DNA from: Promethearchaeota archaeon
Lineage (GTDB): Archaea; Asgardarchaeota; Lokiarchaeia; Sigyniarchaeales; SOKP01
NCBI GenBank assembly: GCA_048939995.1
Contig: JBHLOY010000004.1
Span: 192,001-256,000 of the forward strand
Length of the DNA: 64,000 bases
Direction: 5' to 3'
Both the position numbers and the translations under genes were made by a program. A model generated the notes under the pieces. That model was not told the origin of the DNA. It ran no database searches and worked only from the letters and a program-made list of their open reading frames with translations. This document shows, piece by piece, positions 21,982 through 53,733 of the stretch; position 1 is the first letter of the stretch, and each line of letters opens with the position of its first letter.

Positions 21982-22335
21982 TTTTTACTGTCTTTTGTAA
22001 AATACTGGACTTCTTCAAGAATATTATTAGAAAATAGAATTTTTAAATCTTTTTCAAAGTTAATAATTAGAAAAAAATTTCTAAAATAATTTAATTAAAA
22101 TATTTTTATCGCTTCTCTTTTGGTGATTTATAGATAATTGCAGCATTGACGGCTCTCCTTCATCAATTATTTTATCATAATGTAAATTACAACACTCTTG
22201 AGACTATAGTATCTTTAAAAATGTGCATTGAAAAATATAGAAAATTTAAATTTTATTCAATTTAAATCATTTTTATTGATTAAAGATTATTATTAATATT
22301 TAACTTATATTTGACATTTTATTTGGTGATTAAAA

Positions 22336-22872
22336 ATAACTCGAAAAAGGCTGACTATTGGCTTAGTGCAATGTTACTTTGGAAGAGGTAAAGGAAAGAC
22401 TACAGCCGCATTAGGTCAAGGATTTCGTGCTACTGGACAAGGTTTCAAAGTTTACATGATTCAATTTATGAAGGGTTGGGACAAATATGGAGAGGTGAAT
22501 GCAATTAAAAATACAGATAATTTTGAACTTAAACAATTTGGTACACCCGATCTTATTTCTGAACCAAGAGAAATCGACTATGAGGAGGCTAAAAAAGCAT
22601 TGAAATTTGCTGAAGAAATTATTACGAGTGATAAATATGATATAGTAATTTTAGATGAGATCGGGGTTGCTATCGAATATAATTTGATTGCGGTTGAAGA
22701 AGTCTTGGAATTAATAAATAAAAAACCCGAAAAAGTTGAATTAATATTGACTGGTGGTCCTAATATACATCCCAAGATAAAAGAAAGAGCTGACTTATTA
22801 ACTGAAATGAGGATGATTAAACATTATTACTCTTCAAAAGGGATCACTGCAAGGTTAGGTATTGAATATTAA
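22336..22872 (+). CDS. cobO: Cob(I)yrinic acid a,c-diamide adenosyltransferase (CobO/CobA/BtuR)
   Basis: GRGKGKTTAALG, IQFMKG, ILDEI, LILTG, GIEY; the conserved GLV lies upstream of the GTG, so an ATA start at 22336 (5 nt after GGTGAT) is proposed. Confidence 0.92.
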   Translation: MTRKRLTIGLVQCYFGRGKGKTTAALGQGFRATGQGFKVYMIQFMKGWDKYGEVNAIKNTDNFELKQFGTPDLISEPREIDYEEAKKALKFAEEIITSDKYDIVILDEIGVAIEYNLIAVEEVLELINKKPEKVELILTGGPNIHPKIKERADLLTEMRMIKHYYSSKGITARLGIEY

Positions 22873-46774: not shown

Positions 46775-47392
46775 TTAAAATATTATATTTTGTATTGTAT
46801 GTTTTTTATTATAAGAAACTACTTTTACACCTAATTCCCTCAAATTGTTTGTAATCTCTGGGCAAATATCTTCACAAATATCTTCTTGAACAAAATGTAC
46901 AAAAGCAATGATGTCTTTTTCGTACTTTGACAATAAGTCTAACATTCTCTTAACAATCCATTGAGGTCTTAGTTTTAAACTTAGAAATATTTCTTTTTCC
47001 TGAATCTCTTCACCTAACATGTCAATCCAATTTTTTAAACTAAGCCCTTTATATGACTCTTTCTCAATCATATTTTCATATTCTTCAAATAATTCAGTTT
47101 GTAACTGTTGGTTTTCAATAATTTCTTGATATAAATATCCCATTGCATAATCTGGAATATCAACTTGGAAATAAGGGATTTTAAGCTCATTTAATGTTAG
47201 AGCAAACGGAGTTTTGCTAAATTCTTTCATATTAACTTGAAAATCTACTGTCACAAAATCTACATTGTTCTTTCTTAAAAATTCTCTTAGTTTTGTGGTA
47301 TCTTTATTTTGAAAATACTTAGCATTTTCTTTCGAGGAAATATAGGCAATAATTTTTTTATTTTTTATAGGCTTTAATTCCAAAACCTCCAT
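46775..47392 (-). CDS. Uncharacterised protein, paralog of 46024..46755
   Basis: Shared xVLELKxxKxK start, IP(Y/F)xxxDI..YL and K(L/V)RxxW motifs; GAGGTG SD. Confidence 0.65.
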   Translation of the reverse strand: MEVLELKPIKNKKIIAYISSKENAKYFQNKDTTKLREFLRKNNVDFVTVDFQVNMKEFSKTPFALTLNELKIPYFQVDIPDYAMGYLYQEIIENQQLQTELFEEYENMIEKESYKGLSLKNWIDMLGEEIQEKEIFLSLKLRPQWIVKRMLDLLSKYEKDIIAFVHFVQEDICEDICPEITNNLRELGVKVVSYNKKHTIQNIIF

Positions 47393-47476
47393 TTTATAAA
47401 ACACCTCTCTCTAAACCTTTATTTAAAAGTTTAATATTACTCTAAGATTATAATCAAATTCTCAGAATAAAAAGAG

Positions 47477-47534
47477 TTTGACAAGAAAATTTTGTGATAA
47501 TTTGATAATTTTTTTAGTCAAGATTTCTTTTAAC
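47477..47534 (-). promoter_or_regulatory. Operator-like element: half-site plus TTGAT-N10-GTCAA (47501-47522)
   Basis: Same layout (half-site 24 bp from palindrome) and similar distance to the start codon as 42611-42668. Confidence 0.6.
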
Positions 47535-47633
47535 AAAATTTTATTTGTTATATGCAAAATCGAAATTTCTCCGACTGATAGCGCCATTCTCATTTTTGAA
47601 GTAGAAAATCTCATTGATCAAATCCTGACAAAG

Positions 47634-47685
47634 TTTAAATAGATCGATAACTATCATTATCATGAAGAGAAATAAAATTGTCAAA
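47634..47685 (+). promoter_or_regulatory. Putative promoter of the wHTH-hdrA operon: TATA-like TTTAAATA, degenerate palindrome TCGAT-N10-ATCAT and half-site TTGTCAAA
   Basis: TTTAAATA 47634-47641; palindrome 47643-47664; TTGTCAAA 47678-47685. Confidence 0.4.
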
Positions 47686-47729
47686 TTTCAAAATTAACAA
47701 AAAATTTAATCAAAAGAGGAGATTTAACC

Positions 47730-50276
47730 ATAGGTATTTATAGTATCTTATCTCACCCTTTTCGACAAAAAATCCTACTCTTGTTAGAAAAAGAAGGATT
47801 CATCCCATACACCGATTTAATGGAAAAAATGGGTATCAATCAAACAGGTCAGTTAAATTTCCATTTGAAAAAATTAGGGTCCTTAATAAATAAAGATAAA
47901 AAATCTTATTATTTAAGTGAAGATGGCAAAAAAATTTTAAGAATTATGAATTTGAGCAAGCGTATTTTAGCAGGTGAAGAAATAGAATACTTAGATAAAA
48001 AAGGGAGTGAAATTAGTAGAATAGGAGTGATTTTATGTGGTTGTAATACTGAAATATCCAATATAATAAATATCAATGCATTGGAAAGTCAAATTGAAAA
48101 ATTAGATGGAGTAGTTTCAGTGAAGGTTTTTGATAATTTATGCCAAGAAAAAAATTTAAATAATATAACAAATTGGTCAAAAGAAAATTTTTTAAACAAA
48201 GTTGTTATAGCTGCTTGTTCCCCTAAAACTCATCAACATATTTTTGAGCGAATTTTCAAAGATGTGATTGATAATGCAAATATTGAAATAGCAAATATTA
48301 GGGAACAATGTTGTTGGGTTCATCATTCAAATATTCAACAATTTGATCCTTTATTAGCATTAAAGAAAGCGAGTTTATTAATTGAGGCTGCAGTTGAACG
48401 TGTAAGGCTTCAAAAAGAGGTTAAAATAAAAACTGTAGAAGTGGAAAAAAGCTGTGCAATATTAGGGGGTGGTATCGCAGGTATGACATTAGCCCTTAAT
48501 CTTTCACGTGCAGGGATAAAAGTATACCTAATTGAAAAATCACCTACTTTAGGCGGGAAAGTAGCCAGATGGCATCGGATTTCTAACATGGGGGATTGCT
48601 CTATATGTTTTATTTCCGAATTAATTGGTGAAATCGTAAAAGAAAAAAATATTGAAATTTTGACTAACACTGAAGTAGAAACCGTTTCTGGAGAAGTAGG
48701 AAATTTTAGCTTAGATTTAATCAAGAAACCTCGATTTGTTGATGAGAAAAAGTGTACTGGGTGCAAACAATGCATAAATGTGTGTGGCAAAGAAAAGAAA
48801 AATCAGTATGAATTTGATTTAACTAATCGAAAAATAATATATATCCCCTTCCAAAATGCATATCCATATGCTCCTCTAATTGACGAAGAAGATATTAATA
48901 ATTGTTTAAACTGTAAGATATGTGAACGTGTTTGTATTAATAAAGCAATAGATCTAAGCCAAAAAGTTGAAAAAGTTCGAATTAAAGTCGGAGTTAAAGT
49001 TATAGCTATAGGTGCTGACCTGTACTCCAATCTAGTGAAATATCTATATAATCCTCAAAAAGATATTATCACTTCTGCTGAATTTGAGAGAATTCTATCT
49101 TCGGATGGCATTACTGAGGGAAAATTGCTAAGGTTATCAGATAAAAAACCGATAAATTCCATTTCAATCATTCAAGAAGTTGGTCCATCTAAATATCTTG
49201 CAGAATATTCTGAAAACTTAGCGCAAAAATATATTGAGGATATTAAAATAAGAAGTCCTGACTGTGAAGTAAATGTTTTTTACGATTTAAGTAAATTAAA
49301 AAATAAAGATGAGATATTTCTAAAATCAACCAATCCAAGATTTCTTTACGCTAATAACATATCTATTGAGTCTAATGGTAAAATTAACTATGTTATAGCC
49401 GATAATATTGAATTTCCAAGCGATCTGATAGTTTTAAATCTCAAATGTATACCTAATAAAGATCTAAAAATATTACGTAGATTCATGGATTTTACATTGA
49501 ATGATTACGGTTTTATGAGTGAAGAAACCCTAGCGTCAGGTATTTATGGAGTTGGAACAATATTTGGGGCTTTAAATTACCAAACTACCCTTTCTACAGT
49601 GAATACTGTTGCGTTAAAAATTATTGCACTACTCTCAAATGATTATTTATTAGCTGAATTTACTGGAATTGAAATTAATGAAGATAAATGTGGATTATGT
49701 GGATTATGTGAGAAAGCATGTCCTTATAATGCAATAACTATAGAATCGAATAAGATTAATATTGATAAATTTAAATGTAAAGGATGTGGTACATGCGCTG
49801 GAGTGTGTTCTACAAACGCCATTGAAATGAACATCGATACTTCAGAAAAGATTTTAAGAACAATTGAGATTTATTCAAAATTTGCTAAAAATCCTAAAAT
49901 TATCGCTTTTTGTTGTTCTTCTTGTGGTTATGCCGCAGCTGATGATGCTGGTCTAAAAAAGGAGTTATATCAACCAAATATTTTTGTGATCCGCATTCCC
50001 TGTACTGGAAGATTAGATACTGAATTTATTTTTAAATCTTTTGAGGTCGGATTTGATGGAGTAATGGTAATAGGATGCAGGAAAGATGCTTGCAGATATA
50101 TTGATGGTATTGAAAAAGCACAAAAAAAGATAACTCTCCTAAAAAGGATATTAAATCCCAAATATAGCAACCGAATTATATTTAAAAATTTAAATGCTGT
50201 AGAGGGCCATAAGTTTGCTGAGATCGCAAATAAATTTTATAATATTTTAAAGGAGGGGGCTACTAATCAAACTTAA
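47730..50276 (+). CDS. ArsR-like winged-HTH - HdrA-like flavoprotein/Fe-S - MvhD fusion
   Basis: IYSILSHPFRQKIL..GQLNFHLKKL (wHTH); GVILCGC, ACSP, NIREQCCWVH, GGGIAG, ferredoxin motifs (HdrA); IAFCCSSCGYAAAD, PCTGR, DGVMVIGC..CRY (MvhD); proposed ATA start after GAGGAG. Confidence 0.88.
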   Translation: MGIYSILSHPFRQKILLLLEKEGFIPYTDLMEKMGINQTGQLNFHLKKLGSLINKDKKSYYLSEDGKKILRIMNLSKRILAGEEIEYLDKKGSEISRIGVILCGCNTEISNIININALESQIEKLDGVVSVKVFDNLCQEKNLNNITNWSKENFLNKVVIAACSPKTHQHIFERIFKDVIDNANIEIANIREQCCWVHHSNIQQFDPLLALKKASLLIEAAVERVRLQKEVKIKTVEVEKSCAILGGGIAGMTLALNLSRAGIKVYLIEKSPTLGGKVARWHRISNMGDCSICFISELIGEIVKEKNIEILTNTEVETVSGEVGNFSLDLIKKPRFVDEKKCTGCKQCINVCGKEKKNQYEFDLTNRKIIYIPFQNAYPYAPLIDEEDINNCLNCKICERVCINKAIDLSQKVEKVRIKVGVKVIAIGADLYSNLVKYLYNPQKDIITSAEFERILSSDGITEGKLLRLSDKKPINSISIIQEVGPSKYLAEYSENLAQKYIEDIKIRSPDCEVNVFYDLSKLKNKDEIFLKSTNPRFLYANNISIESNGKINYVIADNIEFPSDLIVLNLKCIPNKDLKILRRFMDFTLNDYGFMSEETLASGIYGVGTIFGALNYQTTLSTVNTVALKIIALLSNDYLLAEFTGIEINEDKCGLCGLCEKACPYNAITIESNKINIDKFKCKGCGTCAGVCSTNAIEMNIDTSEKILRTIEIYSKFAKNPKIIAFCCSSCGYAAADDAGLKKELYQPNIFVIRIPCTGRLDTEFIFKSFEVGFDGVMVIGCRKDACRYIDGIEKAQKKITLLKRILNPKYSNRIIFKNLNAVEGHKFAEIANKFYNILKEGATNQT

Positions 50277-51012
50277 ATTTATTGTAGCTTCATTAACTTC
50301 ATGCAGTGGATGTATTTCAACATTGATGGCTTTAGATATGTTTTCTCAATTTTTAGAAAGGACCGAAATTTCATTTTTCCCATTTATTTCAGACCAAATT
50401 GAAGTTAATGATTCAGATATCGCATTAATAGAGGGTTGTGTTTCAGAAATCAGTCAAATAGCAACTTTGAAGAATATTAGGAAACATGCAAAAAAAGTTT
50501 ATGCTTTAGGTACCTGTGCTACTTTTGGGGGAATTTTGGGATTATCTAAAAGAAAAAATTCTGATCAAATCTCAAAATTTATAGATATTGATGGATTTAT
50601 ACCTGGTTGCCCCCCTCCAACAAATCTGCTAGGAAATTCCTTAATGAGACTAATTGAAAATAAGAGCATTATTTTATCAGAAAAAAATATGTGTATTTCT
50701 TGTCCTCTCAAAGATGAAATGCATTTAAATTCTCAAATCTCAAAACTTAGTCCTTCTAATTCTGAAATTATGTCAGATAAACGAGAATGCTTTTTAAATA
50801 ATGGAATTTTATGTTTAGGACCGATTACTCGAGAAGGGTGTAATAATAAATGTATAGAACTGGGAATACCATGTGAGGGATGCTTAGGTCCTCCTAAAAA
50901 ACAGTTTACTTCAAACCTAATTAATTTCTTAAGTCTGGTTCAACTATCCAATAAATTAAAGAGATATTCGGGTATTTTTTACAGATTTTCAAAACCAACA
51001 TTAAGAGGGTGA
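50263..51012 (+). CDS. mvhG: Group 3 [NiFe]-hydrogenase small subunit (MvhG-like)
   Basis: LTSCSGC (upstream of the first TTG), EGC, GTCATFGG, PGCPP, CLGPITREGC..C..PCEGC; start CTA 50263 or ATC 50266 after AGGAGG. Confidence 0.85.
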   Translation, partial: LIKLKFIVASLTSCSGCISTLMALDMFSQFLERTEISFFPFISDQIEVNDSDIALIEGCVSEISQIATLKNIRKHAKKVYALGTCATFGGILGLSKRKNSDQISKFIDIDGFIPGCPPPTNLLGNSLMRLIENKSIILSEKNMCISCPLKDEMHLNSQISKLSPSNSEIMSDKRECFLNNGILCLGPITREGCNNKCIELGIPCEGCLGPPKKQFTSNLINFLSLVQLSNKLKRYSGIFYRFSKPTLRG

Positions 51013-51018
51013 GGAAGA

Positions 51019-52317
51019 GTACAGAAGGTAATAAATGTATGTTCAAGAGTTGAAGGCCATGGGAAAGTAAATTATTTCATACAAAATGAGCATATTGACC
51101 ATGTTGAATTCGAAATTTCTGCATTTAGGGGATTCGAAAACATTTTAATAGGTAAGAAATTAAGTGATATCCCTAAGATTGTTTCACGAATTTGCGGTCT
51201 ATGTCATGCTTCCCAAACAATTGCTAGTTGTAAAGCAATTGAAAAAATTTATGAAATCCAACCTAGTTCTCAAGCTACTTTACTTCGAAGATTATTAATG
51301 ACGGGAGAATTAATTAAATCTCATATTATGCATTTTTTCTTTCAAACCTTACCAGATCTTTTAGAAATTTTTCAAGTGTTTAAAAATGGAATTGATTCAT
51401 ACAATTTAATTAGATTTGATTCTCAATTGAGTACTTGCGTTTTTGATTTAATTAAAGCAGGAACTGAGTTAAATAATCTTTTTGGAGGAAGGATAATTCA
51501 TTTGATTACCCCTGTTCCCGGAGGAATGATCTACTACCCTTCAAAAAAGAAAATTCTACTTGCCCAAAAATATTTGCAGAAATCTGCTTCTAATATACAA
51601 TATGTTTTAGATCGCTTCGTTGAATTATTCTCTACTAAGAATCCTCCTTATGAATTTAATATATCGAATCTATCATATCTAGGAATGACTAATCAAGGAA
51701 AATATGATAGATATAATGGGACTCTAAGCATTATTCCTTTCAATCAGAATAGAATAAATTTTGAAATCAATGATTACGAAAACTATTTTGATAAAGACTC
51801 TTGTTTGTTTGGAATAAAATTTTTATCTGATATAAAGAATATCTTAACTGGACCTATCGCAAGATTCTTTTTAGTAAAAAATAATAATGAAATTGAAAAA
51901 AATACTATAATAAATAACTTTGATAATAATTGGAAAGAAAATCTATTACTTATGAACATTTTGCAACTATTAGAGATCTCTAATGAAATAAAGGGTAGTC
52001 TAGAGATATTAAATAAACATAGTCTAGAAATTAAAGAACCACTTCCCTCTCTTAATTCCACTTTAAATCAAGAGGGTATTGGAATGGTTGAAGCTCCACG
52101 TGGGACCCTCATACACCACTACCATTTGAATAAATCTAAGGTTATTGATAATGTTAAACTCTTTATAGCCACTGAAATTAATTTTCCCCTTTTGAATGAA
52201 AAAATTAAAAATTACGCTCAAGAGTTATACAAAAAAGAAGATTTAGAATCTCTCAATAGAAAAGTTCAAATTATGATAAGAGCTTTTGATCCATGTATCT
52301 CTTGTGCCACACATTAA
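51019..52317 (+). CDS. mvhA: Group 3 [NiFe]-hydrogenase large subunit (MvhA-like), sensor-like features
   Basis: In frame upstream of the track start: RVEGHG, RGFE, RICGLCHASQ; also EAPRG and DPCISCATH-stop; proposed GTA start after GGTGA. Confidence 0.88.
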   Translation, partial: VQKVINVCSRVEGHGKVNYFIQNEHIDHVEFEISAFRGFENILIGKKLSDIPKIVSRICGLCHASQTIASCKAIEKIYEIQPSSQATLLRRLLMTGELIKSHIMHFFFQTLPDLLEIFQVFKNGIDSYNLIRFDSQLSTCVFDLIKAGTELNNLFGGRIIHLITPVPGGMIYYPSKKKILLAQKYLQKSASNIQYVLDRFVELFSTKNPPYEFNISNLSYLGMTNQGKYDRYNGTLSIIPFNQNRINFEINDYENYFDKDSCLFGIKFLSDIKNILTGPIARFFLVKNNNEIEKNTIINNFDNNWKENLLLMNILQLLEISNEIKGSLEILNKHSLEIKEPLPSLNSTLNQEGIGMVEAPRGTLIHHYHLNKSKVIDNVKLFIATEINFPLLNEKIKNYAQELYKKEDLESLNRKVQIMIRAFDPCISCATH

Positions 52318-52337
52318 AAAGATTTAGTGTTGATCTA

Positions 52338-53351
52338 ATGAATAATATCGAAACGATTCGCAAGGATAATGTAGAACCTGTGCAACTATGTGAAATTTTC
52401 TTACTCTACTTTGATGAGGAATTTGGCCCAATGCCACTTCTTATCACTCCGGATGAATCTTTAAAAAATAATCTCGATGTTATGCGGTTAATTAGAATCC
52501 ATTCCATTTGGTTTCTTGATATAAGCGATCAGACCTCTCCTGATCGTATGGATTTAGAATATAAGGAAAAAATCTATTTTGCAAAGAAATTTTTAGTACC
52601 TTCACAGAGAGAAAAACGACGGTCAGGTTCTGAAGGAGATACTTATGAAACACTCGTTTTAATTTTAGCTTTACCAGTTGATATGGATATCTTTGGAGGA
52701 GCTCTTCTCAAAAGAATGGCTGAACGATTAACAAAGCATTTTGCATTAAAATTCACTCGCTTGATAGATTCTGAAGTGGCAAAAATGAATGCCATAAAAA
52801 CGCCTTCAACCTTAACTTTAATTCAGATCGGCGATACTATTAAAAAACGAATAAGCGTTTTAATCAAAAATACATGTGTCCAATATTTTGATGCTGTAAT
52901 CAAAAAAACGGATTCTACAACTTTCAAACTTCAAAAAGCTATATCATATTTATCGTTAAAAGGAGTCCCAATTAACTATATTGTAAGTGAAGAGGGAAAT
53001 TTAGGCTTTTCAAATGTAAAACTGTTTGAATCAAAAGTTTTAGCAAATGACACATATGGAATTCGAAATCAATTTAAGATTTTAAGCACTGATATAGATC
53101 CAGATACTCAGGAAGTTGAAATCTTAATTAAAAATCAAACAAGTAAAGAATTTAATAACATATATGCAAAAGTTATTTCTATTCAAGAATTCTTCGAAAA
53201 AGAGGTTTTACGTGAAAATATTGAAAAATGGCTTCCTGAAGAGGAATTAATTATTATTTTACCAAATATAATCTCAAATTTTGAATACTATTTTTCTATT
53301 CAAGATGTTAGTTCCAATCAGACTCTGTTTAAACAAAAACTAAGATTGTAA
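52338..53351 (+). CDS. Hypothetical protein with longin/uDENN-like N-terminus and beta-rich C-terminus
   Basis: IFLLYFDEEFGPMPLLITP resembles the first strands of NPRL2/DENN longin domains. Confidence 0.5.
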   Translation: MNNIETIRKDNVEPVQLCEIFLLYFDEEFGPMPLLITPDESLKNNLDVMRLIRIHSIWFLDISDQTSPDRMDLEYKEKIYFAKKFLVPSQREKRRSGSEGDTYETLVLILALPVDMDIFGGALLKRMAERLTKHFALKFTRLIDSEVAKMNAIKTPSTLTLIQIGDTIKKRISVLIKNTCVQYFDAVIKKTDSTTFKLQKAISYLSLKGVPINYIVSEEGNLGFSNVKLFESKVLANDTYGIRNQFKILSTDIDPDTQEVEILIKNQTSKEFNNIYAKVISIQEFFEKEVLRENIEKWLPEEELIIILPNIISNFEYYFSIQDVSSNQTLFKQKLRL

Positions 53352-53364
53352 CTTCGAAAATTTC

Positions 53365-53733
53365 TTAAAATTGAAACTCGCGATTTCTTAGTTTCGAAAC
53401 TAAATGCCCCCTACTAAGAAGTTGTATCCCAAATTGATTAGAATAGTCGCGAGCAAAATCAGTTGCGATATTGCACACCATTATTCCCCCTTCAATGTCC
53501 GGAACATCAAGGCATGCTTTATGGAGTTGTCGTAATTGAGTTATAGAGATTTCTCTTTTCCAATCTCGAATAAATATTCCATATTTTCCATATTTTCCAT
53601 CATCCACAATAGCATTGAAATCCCATAGTTTTCCGGATTTTCCTTTTAATTTTTGAGGATTATTATTATACTGAAATTTTTCAGAAAAGACTTTTTTTGC
53701 TAATTCAGCTAAAGGGGTTTCATTAAATGACAT
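53365..53733 (-). CDS. Mrr-like PD-(D/E)xK fold protein, probably inactive
   Basis: GKSGKLWDFNAIV, GGIMV, ARDYS..GIQLL. Confidence 0.65.
   Translation of the reverse strand: MSFNETPLAELAKKVFSEKFQYNNNPQKLKGKSGKLWDFNAIVDDGKYGKYGIFIRDWKREISITQLRQLHKACLDVPDIEGGIMVCNIATDFARDYSNQFGIQLLSRGHLVSKLRNREFQF

Follow-up and report, generated by a model that had tools for sequence, protein, structure and literature searches.

Three hydrogenase genes without a canonical start

The DNA analysed here is a 64,000-nucleotide stretch of a Promethearchaeota genome (the window; G000:C13:192001-256000), whose assembly comprises 3.75 Mb in 38 contigs at 30% GC. Four co-directional, tightly packed genes at 47.7-53.4 kb of the window form a hydrogenase cluster (Table 1). 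Gene 1 encodes a fusion of a winged helix-turn-helix (wHTH) domain with HdrA and MvhD, gene 2 a small subunit and gene 3 a [NiFe] large subunit. In these three adjacent hydrogenase genes, no ATG, GTG or TTG codon is found between the in-frame stop and the N-terminal residues required for function. We propose that the genes are intact and would be translated from near-cognate codons placed by Shine-Dalgarno (SD) sequences, as one instance of a genus-wide habit, and put the probability of this reading at roughly 0.8.

The reading frame of gene 1 is open from 47676, preceded by TAA 47673, and meets TTG 47781 as its first canonical codon. The wHTH domain DUF7347 begins at residue 22 of the stop-to-stop product, and TTG 47781 corresponds to residue 36, 14 residues later. 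The frame of gene 2 opens at 50251 after TAA 50248; both the Oxidored_q6 match, from residue 18, and the CSGC motif at 50302-50313 lie upstream of the first canonical codon, TTG 50323. The open frame of gene 3 begins at 51013, right behind TGA 51010, the stop of gene 2, and reaches its first canonical codon, ATG 51298, at residue 96, with RVEGHG (51046) and RICGLC, the L1 nickel ligands, upstream of it. Peptides predicted from the segments ahead of the first canonical starts include a tryptic peptide beginning FIVASLTSCSGC, VINVCSR and VEGHGK. That all three genes lack a usable ATG, GTG or TTG had been claimed in an initial annotation of this DNA, and the Pfam domains and metal-ligand motifs located between stop and first canonical codon bear it out. 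The same annotation had placed an SD sequence at normal spacing before each candidate start. This holds as well: all three SD sequences fit the genome consensus GGAGGTGA, derived from 809 unambiguous ATG starts, at aligned spacings of 7, 6 and 6 nucleotides (nt) for genes 1, 2 and 3, compared with a genome mode of 6 nt.

Table 1 Features of the hydrogenase cluster (window coordinates).
Feature	Position	Strand	Basis or remark
TATA-box-like TTTAAATA	47634..47641	+	Predicted; upstream of gene 1
Perfect palindrome GATAA-N6-TTATC	47646..47661	.	Between the TATA-like box and gene 1
Gene 1 SD, GAGGAG	47716..47721	+	10 nt from GAGG end to ATA 47730, the modal GAGG spacing of the genome
Gene 1, wHTH-HdrA-MvhD fusion, 848 aa (amino acids), predicted start ATA	47730..50276	+	Pfam, NCBIfam, ortholog alignment, dN/dS
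Gene 2 SD, GGAGG	50252..50256	+	Aligned spacing to ATC 50266 of 6 nt
Gene 2, MvhG/VhuG-like small subunit, 248 aa, predicted start ATC	50266..51012	+	Pfam Oxidored_q6, NCBIfam VhuG/ShyD
Gene 3 SD, GAGGGTGA	51005..51012	+	Includes gene 2 stop TGA 51010 and out-of-frame GTG 51009
Gene 3, MvhA-like [NiFe] large subunit, 432 aa, favoured start GTA	51019..52317	+	Pfam NiFeSe_Hases, motifs
Alternative gene 3 start, ATA	51031..51033	+	Start of the public 428-aa product; GGTGA 18 nt away
Gene 4, 352 aa, ordinary ATG start	52293..53351	+	Overlaps gene 3 3' end by 25 nt

The segments ahead of the canonical codons evolve as coding sequence. We compared the genome under study (G000) with its closest relatives, G010 and G019, which share 90-92% protein identity with it. 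The ratio of nonsynonymous to synonymous substitution rates (dN/dS) is 0.05-0.06 for gene 1, 0.10-0.14 for gene 2 and 0.13-0.14 for gene 3, at dS of 0.7-0.97. Judged by its substitution pattern, the sequence ahead of the first canonical starts is translated and under strong purifying selection: the 126 codons between near-cognate and first canonical starts have a dN/dS of 0.07, and 41 of the 61 differences in them are third-position changes. Farther upstream, ahead of the near-cognate codons, indels and stops appear among the three species. It is very improbable that translation proceeds only from the first canonical codons, or that the genes are decaying, with the upstream segments as untranslated remnants. 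Starting gene 1 at TTG 47781 would leave the whole HdrA-MvhD part in the product, but a start at TTG 50323 would drop the CxxC ligands of gene 2, and a start at ATG 51298 would drop RVEGHG and the L1 nickel ligands of gene 3. The low dN/dS of the upstream segments, their mostly third-position changes and the indels and stops in the sequence upstream of the near-cognate codons also argue against it.

The encoded proteins are recognizable as hydrogenase subunits, with Pfam (PF00374 / PF01058) scores of 102.6 and 67.2 bits, both above the cut-offs. The large subunit carries RVEGHG, L1 (RICGLCHASQ, window positions 51187-51216) and L2 (DPCISC), and terminates exactly at DPCISCATH (52291-52317), with no extension; the N-terminal CxxC of the small subunit is present as CSGC. 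In gene 1, Pfam identifies the wHTH domain DUF7347, FAD/Fer4 domains and FlpD (MvhD), and the NCBIfam HdrA2 profile matches residues 97-842. By these profiles, the complex is a divergent, lineage-specific group 3-like hydrogenase outside the Mvh/Vhu and Shy equivalogs, since the NCBIfam scores remain far below every equivalog cut-off (VhuA 157 against 800, ShyA 175 against 700, VhuG 124 against 450 and HdrA2 550 against 1100). Signatures of the regulatory-hydrogenase type are seen, namely the replaced L1 His and the missing C-terminal extension, yet the best hidden Markov model (HMM) matches are group 3 enzymes.

Gene 2 overlaps the 3' end of gene 1 by 11 nt. Upstream of gene 1, we take TTTAAATA to fit the archaeal TATA consensus. 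The palindrome, a possible operator to which the wHTH protein would bind, lies 4 nt past this element and about 70 nt upstream of ATA 47730. The 5' leader of gene 1 is conserved between G000 and G019. The protein of gene 4 has no match among the Pfam and NCBIfam profiles, and the Rfam models matched nothing in 47000-53500.

Start codons in orthologous operons

Protein alignments of close pairs are a poor guide to the true N-terminus. The 5' untranslated and promoter regions are conserved near coding level among G000, G010 and G019, and protein alignments can mimic N-terminal extensions. BLASTP alignments with G010 and G019 that reach past the canonical start were rejected as evidence, as about half of all pairs "extend" in this way. 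In place of close-pair alignments, we used more distant genomes of the same genus and compared the start codons column by column. The orthologous operon was gathered from 14 genomes of the genus.

The comparison of orthologous operons called for in the initial annotation places the near-cognate codons on the columns of canonical starts. Eleven orthologs of gene 1 have ATG GAx (A/G/C)Tx TAT (encoding M-D-I-Y-S-I-L-S/A-H-P) where G000 has ATA 47730. The ATA is common to G000, G010 and G019, and in G010 the codon immediately before it is an in-frame TAA. The gene 1 SD reads GAGGGG in G010 and G019. The start column of gene 2 contains GTG, TTG or ATG in most orthologs, ATC in G000, G010 and G019, GTA in G011 and ATT in G022; again, a TAA immediately precedes the ATC in G010. 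Based on this alignment, gene 1 is predicted to start at ATA 47730 and gene 2 at ATC 50266, the best supported of the previously named candidates for these genes. The alternative proposed for gene 2, CTA 50263, is excluded, as G010 has a TAA at that codon.

For gene 3, the codon before Q-K-V is GTA in G000, ATG in G019, ATT in G010 and TTG in four genomes, and G007 has ATA at the equivalent position in the layout GGTGA-N6-ATA. Public large-subunit orthologs at 70% identity begin with MQKV, the M of which aligns with GTA 51019. This start was proposed in the initial annotation, and it remains the best supported by the ortholog column and the GGTGA-N6 SD; ATA 51031, four codons downstream, was omitted there and is also a candidate. 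ATA 51031 belongs to the favoured codon class but has no SD at a usable spacing. The predicted starts of genes 1 and 2 are thus one-mismatch codons, and gene 3 offers an SD-supported GUA with two mismatches or a one-mismatch ATA with no SD. The start of gene 3 is the weakest of the three calls: we lean slightly towards GTA 51019, regard ATA 51031 as a serious but less likely contender, and leave a small share to another start or to the use of both.

GTG 51009, just upstream, appears to be part of the ribosome-binding site GGTGA and not a start, since the site has the modal GGTGA-N6 layout and, in G007, where this layout recurs, the GTG frame ends after two codons. GTGA-N6-start is the commonest SD layout in the genome and a clear mode (50 of the 809 clear ATG starts), and GAGGGTGA followed by six bases and GTA matches it exactly. 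A second GGTGA-N6-GTA case lies outside the window at G000:C13:48036 (+), 2 codons past an in-frame stop and 46 before the first canonical codon; its Cys-rich protein begins GHCEFCGKK.

Genes 2 and 3 share a frame with only the TGA between them, and GTGA is a classic stop/start overlap. This arrangement would be compatible with recoding, either by read-through of TGA 51010 into a fusion of small and large subunit or by a start at GTG 51009 followed by a +1 frameshift. The in-frame TGA, however, is explained by the SD itself, because a GGTGA site at a spacing of 6 nt produces it automatically. In G010 and G019, genes 2 and 3 lie in different frames, which makes a read-through fusion impossible there, and the GTG frame of G007 stops after two codons. 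The region has neither a slippery motif nor an Rfam element, and genes 1 and 2 would be left unexplained. We rejected both forms of recoding for mvhG-mvhA, as the frame relation is unconserved in orthologs, and consider them highly unlikely.

G010 and G019 read GGTGA-N5-ATT and GGTGA-N5-ATG, respectively, so that G000 has one base more between GGTGA and the start of gene 3. Sequencing or assembly errors could in principle have removed the canonical starts, and the initial annotation had singled out a 1-nt error joining GTG 51009 to the mvhA frame. The extra base falls in the untranslated spacer between SD and start, and G007 has GGTGA-N6-ATA independently, which at the sequence level speaks against such an error. 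A product of identical sequence, 428 aa long, was called on a different contig of 22.9 kb, with GTG 51009 unused. ATA and ATC are identical in three metagenome-assembled genomes that were assembled independently in different studies, and three errors at three start codons with none in 1,500 codons of intact open reading frame (ORF) are implausible. We regard error as the least probable of the explanations considered.

The effect on gene calling is uneven. It had been suggested that automated callers truncate these genes and miss the L1 motif, and the small-subunit entries of close relatives in Logan are indeed cut, being 224-232 aa long and beginning after the CxxC. A public small subunit of 248 aa is also on record, however, and begins with MKLKF at the position of the ATC. 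L1 is not universally missed, because the public 428-aa large subunit starts at ATA 51031 and retains it; the 339-aa product from ATG 51298 has no exact match in the public collection. Gene finders restricted to ATG, GTG and TTG would strip gene 1 of a DNA-binding helix, the small subunit of its cluster-binding CxxC or the large subunit of its nickel-binding half. Hydrogenases can accordingly be missed or misclassified when the metabolism of Asgard archaea is reconstructed from such calls.

Near-cognate starts across the genome and genus

We surveyed 3,214 coding-like stop-to-stop ORFs of G000 for codons that precede the first canonical codon and lie 5-7 nt (aligned) past an exact 5-mer of GGAGGTGA. 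Exact 5-mers were used instead of a position weight matrix for the SD region, which was too blurred by variable spacing. The codon-usage score of open leaders is biased upward, leaders being stop-free by construction, and served only as a filter for real genes. ATT, ATA and ATC make up 73 of the 179 leader codons (41%), compared with 9.5% at internal SD-like sites (binomial p = 2e-28), and CTG is enriched as well (5/179 against 0.3% internally). The leader codons that lie at most 6 codons from the upstream stop and at least 10 before the canonical start comprise 37 ATH (H being A, C or T), 3 CTG and 2 GTA among 58. A near-cognate codon behind a strong SD is found in the leader of 80 ORFs, the median site being 2 codons past the in-frame stop, with the first canonical codon another 23 codons on. 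By comparison, the same SD criterion is satisfied by 140 first-canonical starts. Where the ortholog of a relative has a clear ATG (n = 122), G000 has ATG in 97 cases, TTG in 7, GTG in 1, ATT in 3 and ATA in 3. The same ATH excess is seen in sampled DNA of G010, G019, G017, G005 and G020. The four codons enriched in G000 are the four near-cognates with measurable initiation in E. coli (bioRxiv 10.1101/063800).

Individual genes illustrate the pattern. In the ABCE1/RLI gene (G000:C5:50186-51997 (-), locus L078), the first canonical codon lies 97 codons downstream. Its leader, ATG TGG TGA AGC ATA ATT, holds a mini-ORF of 2 codons with the SD GGTGA at its end, and the predicted start is either ATA, 3 nt past GGTGA, or ATT, 6 nt past it; Fer4_RLI is matched from residue 3 of the ATA-started product. 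A corrinoid adenosyltransferase (CobA/CobO/BtuR) gene within the window (22330-22870 (+)) has ATA 22336 behind GGTGA-N6, and in its G010 counterpart the first canonical codon lies 42 codons in, past the P-loop. A flavodoxin-like gene at G000:C16:15506 (+), whose protein reads LKVLIVYYTKYGNTEK..., has CTG behind GAGGTGA-N6, with the first canonical codon 101 codons farther on.

ATT, ATA, ATC and CTG would thus serve as starts in roughly 2-5% of genes. This is a habit of the genome and the genus and probably not a device of the hydrogenase operon, since dozens of genes across genome and genus do likewise. The survey also shows CTG as a predicted start in G000.

Several observations weigh against this reading. 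The run of three near-cognate starts is the only one in the genome, with only two adjacent pairs counted among the 80 ORFs, and roughly 0.05-0.3 such runs would be expected from 80-150 affected genes; some cause specific to this operon may therefore lie behind the three in a row. The favoured codon of gene 3, GTA, is not enriched genome-wide (4/179 leader sites against 1.9% internally) and differs from ATG at two positions. The public gene call starts the large subunit at ATA 51031 instead, its 428-aa product beginning MNVCSRVEGHG with ATA decoded as M. If the assembly were wrong by 1 nt between 51012 and 51019, GTG 51009 would be in frame, as in G010. Finally, the initiator tRNA was not found in the assembly in searches with aragorn, the Rfam tRNA model and a regular expression for the anticodon arm. 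Aragorn reported 9 tRNAs with no intron search and 24 with it, none of which has a CAU anticodon, and the Rfam model gave 21 matches; the tRNA genes of G000 are probably intron-rich or otherwise atypical.

The operon-specific cause proposed in the initial annotation was dosage control, in which weak starts are selected to hold a sensor complex at low, stoichiometrically matched levels; this could add to a lineage-wide tolerance. The unique run of three fits this explanation, as does the retention of ATA and ATC in three species across dS of 0.7-1.0. The operon also shows further independent non-canonical states in other species (ATA in G007 mvhA, GTA in G011 mvhG and ATT in G022 mvhG), compared with such states in 1 of 97 control genes sampled from G017, G005 and G020. 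The truncated small-subunit entries at about 70% identity suggest an old non-canonical start in that clade. The comparison of the operon with control genes is, however, post hoc, rests on small counts (about 3/32 against 1/97) and ignores shared ancestry. The same codons serve as predicted starts in housekeeping genes, ABCE1 among them, and gene 4 of the cluster starts at ATG. All three SD sequences are strong and optimally spaced, which points to compensation rather than deliberate weakness. The dosage hypothesis, in which the sensor role is itself putative, is weakened because about 80 ORFs, including ABCE1, and five relatives show near-cognate starts, and we consider it unlikely. The conserved, selected near-cognate starts are the solid part of what the locus offers, and low sensor dosage is a hypothesis.

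Start selection and comparison with known systems

Under the genus-wide reading, the SD would pair with the 3' end of the 16S rRNA and put a codon about 6 nt downstream into the P site. The initiator tRNA, assumed to carry the anticodon CAU, would then pair with two of three bases, or, for GUA, form one base pair and a G:U pair. Third-position mismatches of the AUH type (AUA, AUU or AUC) behind a strong SD may get past proofreading often enough in this genus to be the only starts of their genes. The model presumes that the initiator tRNA reads these codons as Met, that they initiate efficiently enough and that proofreading is relaxed. In archaea, the SD pre-positions the 30S complex, and aIF1 destabilises an incompletely paired initiator tRNA and disfavours non-canonical starts (PMC6237735). 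The eIF1/eIF1A/eIF2 core, by which codon-anticodon pairing in the P site is accepted or rejected, is common to archaea and eukaryotes (PMC6237735).

The gene for aIF1 (SUI1) itself follows the pattern. In all 15 main copies of the genus (15/15; loci L085-L109), no canonical codon lies between the in-frame TGA and the zinc knuckle. The leader contains AAGGTTGTGA, followed after nine bases by a conserved ATT AAA GAx ahead of the zinc knuckle; in other genera of the order, aIF1 starts with ATG, GTG or TTG. No aIF1 was found in G000, which is 98% complete, or in G010, using the Pfam HMM and tblastn with the proteins of five relatives. Both conserved neighbours of aIF1 (a GTPase-like protein of ~180 aa and a protein of ~313 aa) likewise have only paralog-level matches in G000, and an unassembled block is as likely an explanation as real loss.

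It is conceivable, although quite improbable, that the near-cognate starts form a regulon read out by stringency, in which the ATT-started aIF1 sets its own level and the output of the AUH-started genes. The hydrogenase operon, with three near-cognates including a two-mismatch GUA, would then be the most stringency-sensitive unit in the genome, and a redox- or H2-responsive DNA-binding complex would be tied to the state of the translation apparatus. On this view, a real loss of aIF1 in G000 and its closest relative would leave start selection permanently relaxed in them.

The use of AUA, AUU and AUC starts documented in bacteria falls far below the few percent of genes predicted here. Our literature search turned up no publication describing routine AUH starts in Asgard archaea in the library covered, although one may still exist. 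This archaeal lineage is the closest to eukaryotes, with which it shares the eIF1-type proofreading core, and routine AUH starts in it make the stringency of start-codon selection in Asgard archaea directly testable.

The hydrogenase shares with the group 3 Mvh/Vhu [NiFe]-hydrogenases the N-terminal CxxC of the small subunit, the RxEGH, L1 and L2 motifs of the large subunit, and the HdrA and MvhD modules. Unlike in these enzymes, HdrA-MvhD is fused to an N-terminal wHTH domain, and the large subunit lacks a cleavable tail, stopping at DPCISCATH.

Termination-reinitiation coupling is known at genes that overlap or abut. The geometry of this operon resembles it, as the start of gene 2 lies 11 nt before, and that of gene 3 6 nt after, the upstream stop codon. 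Gene 1, however, leads the operon with its own 5' leader and still has ATA, and many ATH starts across the genome do not lie beside an upstream stop in another frame. Because of these two features, coupling is not the general cause.

The closest bacterial parallels are the SD-led AUU starts of infC and pcnB, of which the AUU of infC serves as an autoregulatory device. The conserved ATT start of aIF1 in this genus resembles that of infC. For genes 1 and 2 of the hydrogenase operon, the parallel is one of codon class and SD. In E. coli, AUU starts have been confirmed in two genes only, infC and pcnB, and ATT, ATA, ATC and CTG give 0.1-3% of the output of AUG (bioRxiv 10.1101/063800). Across 36 prokaryote genome groups, 1 of 61,358 ancestral AUG starts switched to AUU (PMC5622118). 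What the predicted starts have in common with infC, pcnB and the ATT, ATC, ATA and CTG of NCBI table 11 is a one-mismatch codon at normal SD spacing that is the sole start of a conserved full-length protein. They differ from the E. coli cases in scale, with about 80 or more ORFs per genome, 6 of 122 genes with ATG orthologs carrying ATT or ATA, and three in one operon. The hydrogenase candidate GUA also departs from the one-mismatch starts of E. coli by differing from AUG at two positions.

With eukaryotes, in which proofreading depends on eIF1, these archaea would share the factor core and the principle that lowered stringency raises the use of near-cognate codons. Unlike in eukaryotes, initiation here would be positioned by the SD and involve no scanning, and AUH codons are preferred rather than CUG, GUG and ACG.

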